From: an uncultured virus (IMG/VR IMGVR_UViG_3300047157_000127)
Lineage: Duplodnaviria > Heunggongvirae > Uroviricota > Caudoviricetes > Crassvirales
Virus record (IMG/VR): IMGVR_UViG_3300047157_000127
Reading direction: 5' to 3' (one strand)
DNA: 64,000 nucleotides
Shown one piece after another: positions 38,584 to 38,657 of the stretch. The notes under the pieces were generated by a model. That model did no database searches, had not been told where the DNA came from, and saw nothing but the letters and a program-made list of their open reading frames with translations. A program made the translations under genes and the position numbers. Position 1 is the first letter of the stretch. Each line of letters starts with the position of its first letter.

Positions 38584-38657
38584 TGGAAGTGGGCGGAGTC
38601 GAACCGCCGTTAGACACCTTTGCTTTCGCCGCGGTTGTCTCTTACCTTATCACTCCC
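38584..38657 (-). ncRNA. tmRNA tRNA-like-domain-only RNA (Ala identity)
   Basis: Acceptor GGGAGTG/CACTTCC with G3-U70 and discriminator A; unpaired D-loop; T arm GGCGG-TTCGACT-CCGCC; no anticodon loop and no tag ORF. Confidence 0.75.

Follow-up and report, generated by a model that had tools for sequence, protein, structure and literature searches.

The minus strand of the window, by which is meant the whole 64,000-nt stretch of uncultured viral DNA analysed here, raises the question of what is encoded by the 74 nt at 38584-38657, and of how a phage might use it. The original prediction for this segment was a stand-alone tRNA-like domain (TLD) of a tmRNA, with alanine identity, no anticodon and no tag reading frame. 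The window is a phage sequence of about 33% G+C that encodes virion structural proteins, tail fibres, ribonucleotide reductase, thymidylate synthase, a primase/helicase, DNA ligase and ERF. GroEL and GroES (56145-57942, plus strand), a sigma-factor-like protein (33078-33836, minus strand) and a 2479-aa protein without a Pfam match (14331-21770, plus strand) are also present. The primase/helicase is closest to that of Cellulophaga phage phi10:1 (43% identity), followed by those of phages of (tentatively) Riemerella, Tenacibaculum and Flavobacterium. These best phage relatives of the primase suggest a host in the Flavobacteriaceae, and the host is probably a member of this family. Among the ORFs scanned (61 in Pfam, 17 in PHROGs) there was no SmpB, no integrase and no release factor gene, and the same scans identified no defence or anti-defence gene near the element.

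The predicted minus-strand sequence matches the window exactly. Read 5' to 3', the RNA is GGGAGUG/AUAAGGUAAG/AGACAACC/GCGGCGAAAGCAAA/GGUGUCU/AAC/GGCGG/UUCGACU/CCGCC/CACUUCC/A, where RNA position 1 corresponds to window position 38657 and the discriminator A to 38584. The acceptor 5' strand, GGGAGUG (38651-38657, like all parts of the element on the minus strand), supplies the G3 of the G3:U70 wobble, which is seen in the sequence, in the fold and in the pair counts given below. It is followed by the stemless D-loop analogue AUAAGGUAAG (38641-38650), in which A8 and GG are invariant columns, by helix 2 with its GC-GAAA-GC cap (38612-38640), and by an AAC linker (38609-38611). The 29-nt helix 2 and cap make up the variable inner arm of the family described below; this assignment rests on the fold and on covarying closing pairs. 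The T arm, GGCGG-UUCGACU-CCGCC (38592-38608), is defined by its sequence, by an Rfam match, by the fold and by compensatory changes (GC/CG, CG/AU); its 5-bp stem and 7-nt UUCGAnU loop stack directly on the acceptor 3' strand CACUUCC, which together with the discriminator A occupies 38584-38591. CCA is not encoded, and the trailer is CUA.

The minimum free energy (MFE) structure given by RNAfold has the same parts, namely a 7-bp acceptor, an unpaired AUAAGGUAAG, a capped helix 2 (AGACA-A-CC/GG-UGUCU), the AAC linker and a 5-bp T stem with a 7-nt loop. The fold energy is -29.2 kcal/mol (z -3.05), a value equalled by 3 of 200 shuffles. The sequence and the MFE fold together confirm the 7-bp acceptor with G3-U70 and discriminator A, the stemless GG loop, the 3-nt linker and the perfect T arm that had been described, and the fold also reproduces the short GC-GAAA-GC closure of helix 2. 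The GAC said to follow the loop is found in the window copy but does not extend to the relatives, which carry UGAGA, UACUA, AUCAA or other sequences there.

The Rfam tmRNA model RF00023 matches 38581-38657 with 36 bits (E 7.6e-13 in E-value mode, 601 bases searched). This match runs from model position 1 to 374, and 33 nt stand in for 328 internal positions, so that the check proposed with the tmRNA model finds both ends of a tmRNA. RF00023 is also the best match kept among the tRNA-clan models at the element. The score lies under the Rfam gathering score of 47 bits; accordingly, Rfam at gathering thresholds reports only the neighbouring tRNA-Met, and ARAGORN calls neither a tRNA nor a tmRNA for the element and likewise reports only the tRNA-Met. 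Automated annotation had been expected to miss the element, and mini-tmRNA genes of the family indeed escape these standard tools. Model R1, a covariance model built from 28 family sequences, gives the window element 74.9 bits, the element itself being one of the training sequences.

Two more conventional identities were considered and rejected. Similar to tRNAs (RF00005), and to tRNA-Ala in particular, the element has a G3:U70/A73 acceptor and a T arm with a UUCGA-type loop. The two differ in that the fold of the element contains no D stem and no anticodon arm, ARAGORN calls no tRNA, and position 8, which as a rule is U in tRNAs, is an invariant A. The predicted TLD architecture without an anticodon is therefore upheld by the RF00023 match, by the ARAGORN result and by A8. 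A complete tmRNA was rejected since ARAGORN finds none and since merely 33 nt lie between the matched ends, without pseudoknots or a tag frame. Full-length tmRNAs have the same tRNA-like domain, and the 27-nt 3' end of the element is identical to that of two tmRNAs in other viral loci (L011 and L019); the element differs in lacking pseudoknots and a tag frame together with its resume and stop codons, and in measuring 74 nt against 374 model positions.

The absence of a tag message extends to the family. In 35 distinct members (74-185 nt) the stop-bounded frames vary from one to the next; none of them is common to the members or has the usual tag ending. Together with the lack of an ARAGORN tmRNA and the 33 nt between the matched ends, this bears out the claim that no tag reading frame is present. 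The window copy is among the shortest, two metagenome forms being 72-73 nt long.

Relatives were collected in three ways. Exact matches to the 3' 22-mer of the element were found in 22 viral-contig loci, 20 of which carry the same frame, GGGAGUGAUA(A/U)GGUAAG, inner arm, AACGGCGG-UUCGA(C/U)U-CCGCC-CACUUCC-A-CUA, with a tRNA-Met downstream in most of them. The remaining two are the full-length tmRNAs of L011 (1498-1886, 389 nt) and L019 (1077-1525, 449 nt, with a 25-aa tag by ARAGORN), which have the identical 27-nt 3' end; tblastn detected no protein common to their flanks and the window. L019 also shows a weak TLD-like match at 2583-2675. A second set, independent of the sequence of the RNA, comprises 47 viral loci anchored on the upstream 67-aa Cys-rich ORF (38763-38966, minus strand), which belongs to no known family; elements in these loci were first found by a structure-only scanner. 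Strong R1 matches (≥43 bits) occur in 29 of the 47 anchor loci, a weak one (26.6 bits) in L035 and none in 17, scores that arise partly by construction because most of the matching loci also supplied model sequences. Third, the 5' 17-mer of the element occurs in at least 117 metagenome stretches; among the 117 matches listed, 100 are complete elements (59 distinct sequences), 3 are cut by contig ends and 14 match by chance and are unrelated. Among GenBank phages, the 74-nt element found only partial matches at chance level (E≥2). With about 60 distinct sequences, the family is large enough for comparative analysis.

Covariation was assessed on 61 distinct sequences aligned to R1, with 500 shuffles for comparison. 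Cells were paired in 91.7% of cases, against 73.1% after shuffling, and the covariation score was 0.416 against 0.109, a value reached by none of the 500 shuffles; a second computation gave a similar result, and sliding the partners by 1-3 columns lowered the score to 0.045-0.085. The 100% pairing in the acceptor and T stem is partly imposed by the scanner and the model, and what carries information is the double-sided changes together with helix 2, which played no part in the selection of sequences. In helix 2, each of the 7 closing pairs changes on both sides, with up to 6 standard pair types per position. Acceptor pair 4:69 is A-U in 48 and C-G in 13 of the 61 sequences, while compensatory changes occur at 2-3 of the 5 T-stem pairs, including 210:224 (G-C 49, C-G 12) and 211:223 (C-G 46, A-U 14, G-C 1). 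Furthermore, all 28 aligned sequences share A8, G12, G13 and the AC that precedes the T stem. The conservation and covariation that the original prediction named as a check are thus found, with the frame in 20 of 22 and 29 of 47 loci.

These data also speak to the view that the element is a non-functional relic. Such a relic might be a piece of a host ssrA gene of the attP type, a scar left by recombination, or a tmRNA or tRNA pseudogene in decay. Degenerate and chimeric copies do exist: G001 (the same locus as L001 and L031, and the virus record nearest to the window) has two flawed tandem copies (L031 1783-1857 and 1925-2019), one with an extra T-stem base and the other with a C3.U70 mismatch, and L035 1702-1790 is a chimera of a mini-tmRNA 5' half and a tRNA-Met 3' half. 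In addition, tmRNA genes are common integration sites, according to the excerpted text of the tmRNA database paper (PMC11915505). Against this stand the presence and covariation of both acceptor strands, the retention of the frame in anchor loci down to 65% identity of the neighbouring protein, and the absence of an integrase among the scanned ORFs. Moreover, in a genome set of 185,579 species (one genome each) the 22-mer occurs in one contig, a 903-bp MAG contig that is itself a family member. A relic is disfavoured on the basis of the covarying acceptor strands, the missing integrase and the near-absence of the 22-mer from species genomes, and is considered very improbable. Its most specific form, a 3' fragment of ssrA left at an attP site, was rejected because the 5' strand is present and covaries, no integrase was found among the scanned ORFs and the 22-mer occurs in the species genome set in no contig other than that family member. 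It is highly likely that the element is a real phage gene, encoding a tag-less mini-tmRNA made up of the tmRNA tRNA-like domain and a short capped helix 2.

In the window, the mini-tmRNA gene is directly preceded on its 5' side by a conserved leader motif, ACAUAAGUGAAUUGCCUGCUACAAUA (38658-38683, minus strand), and is separated by a spacer module (38507-38583, minus strand) from a tRNA-Met with a CAU anticodon (38434-38506, minus strand), which is called by both ARAGORN and Rfam and is the usual downstream neighbour in relatives. Contigs from four seawater RNA-library runs cover the gene; these are assembled contigs and DNA carry-over is possible. In run X1 a 77-nt contig covers 38582-38658 without a mismatch and in run X2 the coverage is 38582-38683, although unitig ends reflect sequence variants. 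The joints seen in such contigs indicate presence/absence variants in natural populations: 38508->38581 skips the spacer, 38507->38660 skips the spacer and the element, and 38509->38767 skips the leader, the element and the spacer together. The gene is evidently dispensable, since these joints represent variants without it, since 17 of the 47 anchor loci lack it, and since it is missing from L029, whose neighbouring protein is 100% identical to that of the window.

What such a gene would do is proposed from its structure and its setting. The reading favoured here is that of a tag-less mini-tmRNA gene whose product also titrates SmpB and competes with host tmRNA, a combined statement for which the odds are somewhat better than even; that SmpB titration is the main function is put at an even chance at best. 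The gene lies within a leftward block of small minus-strand ORFs that starts near 41,450. A scan of 38000-41700 was uninformative, as it gave 23 promoter-like sites where 19.2±4.2 would be expected and 1 terminator-like site where 1.5 would be. The gene would be co-transcribed with the small-gene block and the adjacent tRNA-Met, and tRNA-like processing would follow. Excision would proceed by RNase P cleavage at the 5' end and 3' trimming after A73, and then by CCA addition, which is proposed because CCA is not encoded. Host AlaRS would charge the mini-tmRNA with alanine through G3:U70 and A73, and host SmpB and EF-Tu would bind it. As the RNA has no resume codon and no stop codon, it could not complete trans-translation, and it would therefore compete with host tmRNA for SmpB and stalled ribosomes, damping tagging and degradation during infection. 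The inner arm would be free to vary and would be exchanged between phages as a cassette.

A mini-tmRNA of this kind has already been published. Mycobacterium phage DS6A is listed as 'TLD only' by Hudson, Lau and Williams (2014, PMC4131195), and the 2025 tmRNA database paper (PMC11915505) repeats the account of DS6A and of inhibition; DS6A is the one phage TLD-only example named in the excerpted texts of these two sources. According to the excerpt of PMC4131195, which cites Mao et al. (2009, RNA Biol 6:355), a similar TLD-only molecule inhibits tmRNA, perhaps via SmpB titration, and chargeability is not needed for the inhibition seen when such a molecule is expressed in E. coli. The inhibition proposed here would match that report, as far as the excerpted account goes.

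Similar to the window element, the DS6A element is phage-encoded and has a G3:U70 acceptor, a stemless GG loop and a T arm; in both, the mRNA-like domain is wholly replaced by a short hairpin and the 3' end reads CCACUA. RF00023 matches both through the two ends alone, the DS6A element (JN698994.1, 28478-28560) with 43.2 bits, which is below the gathering score and leaves 312 internal positions replaced by 20 nt, and the window element with 36 bits. The two are not close relatives, as R1 detects no match in DS6A at E≤1, and no sequence relationship can be detected beyond general tmRNA features. They differ further in that DS6A infects a host of another phylum, whereas the host of the window phage is probably of the Flavobacteriaceae, and in that DS6A has an annotated tyrosine integrase while none was found in the window. 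The window element is also one of a large family in which the arm is swappable and some members do not have the G:U pair. The marine family is thus a further case of the published kind in unrelated phages; a literature search, with supplements outside its scope, found no published description of it. The same TLD-only solution is therefore seen in an unrelated and apparently widespread group of marine phages, probably of Flavobacteriaceae. To our knowledge, nearly all bacteria carry out trans-translation, and a phage RNA built as a mimic of the tmRNA entry end alone would be a compact natural means of interfering with it.

The pair that would determine charging is kept in most members. Pair 3:70 is G-U in 57 of the 61 aligned sequences, A-U in 4 and never G-C, and it is the only acceptor pair never altered on both sides. 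The discriminator is A in 58 of the 59 distinct sequences among the metagenome matches listed. G3:U70 and A73 are kept in three acceptor types (GGGAGUG, GGGCGUG and GGGCGCG), a retention that, with its compensatory neighbours, points to selection for charging, beyond SmpB binding. The exceptions with A3-U70 are GGACGUG, which is the second copy of a tandem in L025, GAACAUA with discriminator C, and AGACAUG with discriminator U; the latter two types are the sole copy in 4 of the 29 element-carrying anchor loci. The sequence determinants of the predicted alanine identity are present in the window copy and in most relatives across three acceptor types, and they are not universal in the family, as some relatives combine A3-U70 with a C or U discriminator. 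TLD-like RNAs with A3-U70 and a discriminator A, C or U lie at L025 1344-1423 (in tandem with a G3:U70 copy), L048 1786-1864 and L047 1835-1940; in the L048 and L047 types the middle of the RNA folds poorly.

Selection for charging would be expected if the RNA carried out tag-free rescue, in which alanylated mini-tmRNA and SmpB would accept the nascent chain on a stalled ribosome and another release factor would resolve the complex. Phage proteins made from cleaved mRNAs would then be released untagged and escape destruction. There is a parallel in the CDS-less tmRNAs of jakobid mitochondria and Mallomonadaceae plastids (~65 bp), noted in the excerpted texts of PMC11915505 and PMC3985003; these organellar genes persist and, in the former excerpt, are thought to help with incomplete mRNAs. 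By these descriptions they likewise amount to roughly the tRNA-like domain alone, without a tag frame, and differ in belonging to eroded genomes that rely on imported SmpB, not being accessory phage genes. Tag-free rescue faces three difficulties, however. The mini-tmRNA lacks a stop codon with which the reaction could terminate, and the Pfam and PHROG scans of the ORFs revealed no release factor gene. The A3-U70 members with a C or U discriminator stand alone in their four loci; they fit the inhibition without chargeability reported in PMC4131195 (excerpt). Finally, the only experiment that this excerpt reports on such a molecule found inhibition. Tag-free rescue is consequently regarded as unlikely. 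Variants that keep or lose G3:U70, together with identical frames that carry unrelated arms, could be used to tell apart what charging, SmpB binding and the arm each contribute.

Competition with host tmRNA does not by itself account for the inner arm. Among the metagenome matches listed, the arms are 27-93 nt long and cannot be aligned between members; the 59 distinct sequences fall into 17 arm classes that share fewer than three 8-mers within an otherwise identical frame. Longer members have insertions in the apical loop of the arm, and the 29-nt arm of the window is among the shortest forms seen. Turnover is evident between very close relatives, as loci whose upstream protein is 100% identical to that of the window carry three different arms or no element: L030 has a 107-nt element with an unrelated arm, L032 a 99-nt element with another, L031 (G001) the arm of the window plus a degenerate second copy, and L029 none. 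Additionally, 41 of 67 arms (≥30 nt) match at least 24 nt outside any strictly recognised element, although some of these matches fall in imperfect elements (L035, L031, L113 and L051). The AAGAAAUAGGAGAC..GUCACACUAACUU module is free-standing in L043, L044 and L053, and the arm of L016 is free-standing downstream in L025 and L027. The exchange of unrelated cassettes within an identical frame is left unexplained by simple SmpB titration.

Such an exchange would be natural if the tRNA-like frame were a chassis that confers processing, stability or delivery, in the manner of a 'tRNA scaffold', and the swappable arm were the functional part, for example a decoy or a binding site for a host or phage factor. 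The arm of the window is poorly suited to this role, being a minimal hairpin with a GNRA cap and little room for a payload, and in the 6 loci compared with Rfam none of the arms matched a family at E≤0.01. The tmRNA-specific features A8, G3:U70 and the AC linker would be needless for a mere scaffold, and the imperfect elements among the outside matches weaken the case for free-standing arms. This explanation is therefore judged improbable. The broader statement is likewise thought doubtful; it holds that an abundant group of marine phages displays interchangeable RNA cassettes in one constant frame, which is processed like a tRNA and probably recognised by SmpB and AlaRS. If it were true, the cassettes would, within the same RNA island, also move about as hairpins outside the frame, arm and frame together would decide how the RNA acts (which factor is trapped, or which cargo is brought to the ribosome), and the turnover of cassettes would be the mark of an arms race between phage and host. 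In any case, the combination of a constant frame and a portable arm is a family-level feature that deserves follow-up.

An arms race would also underlie arm turnover if the RNA were a decoy or bait for a host defence nuclease or another factor that attacks tRNA or tmRNA. Presence, absence and cassette turnover among very close relatives form the pattern expected of accessory counter-defence genes, and the element adjoins a phage tRNA gene. This proposal is purely inferential, with no known target, and the Pfam and PHROG scans identified no defence or anti-defence gene nearby; a decoy is accordingly held to be rather remote. Competition with host tmRNA for SmpB and stalled ribosomes remains the preferred reading of the mini-tmRNA.

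The arms are not the only mobile parts of the locus: the entire intergenic region is composed, mosaic-like, of RNA modules nested in one another. The spacer module, CUACAGACUGG...GGUC(A/G)CCACU (~75 nt), is conserved but mobile: it follows the mini-tmRNA in the window and in L023, follows the tRNA-Met in G001 and L029 (2044-2119), and is missing from L021; the folds predicted for this module are weak and do not agree with one another. The tRNA-Met shows A11:U24 and, at the base of its anticodon stem, a run of three G-C pairs, which we take to be initiator-type features. In many relatives, the tRNA-Met or the mini-tmRNA is preceded by an element of ~120 nt closed by GAGAGAC...GUCUCUC (L029 1800-1990, L046 1850-1975, L049 1785-1900), which gave no match to Rfam at E≤0.01 in those loci that were tested. 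The 3' part of this element, AACUACCUGUCCACAACUGGUG(C/U)CUC, is the leader of the copies in L010, L013, L018, L021 and L027. A further module, closed by AGGUGAGG...CCUCACCU, is found in L038 (330-470), L043 (1365-1600), L052 (1680-1815) and L026, and holds a ACCCACAAAUGCGUGGUCGU piece that is the inner arm of the L007 and L013 mini-tmRNAs.

Several long members have insertions with GGAAGUG beside the palindrome GUGUAUUACAC (L056 1781-1918, L057 1787-1963, L042 1686-1870 and L064 1246-1420). GGAAGUG is a perfect complement of the acceptor 3' strand, so that a shorter acceptor with A3-U70 could form as an alternative, nested pairing. This motif is also present in L029, L046 and L049, relatives that have no mini-tmRNA.
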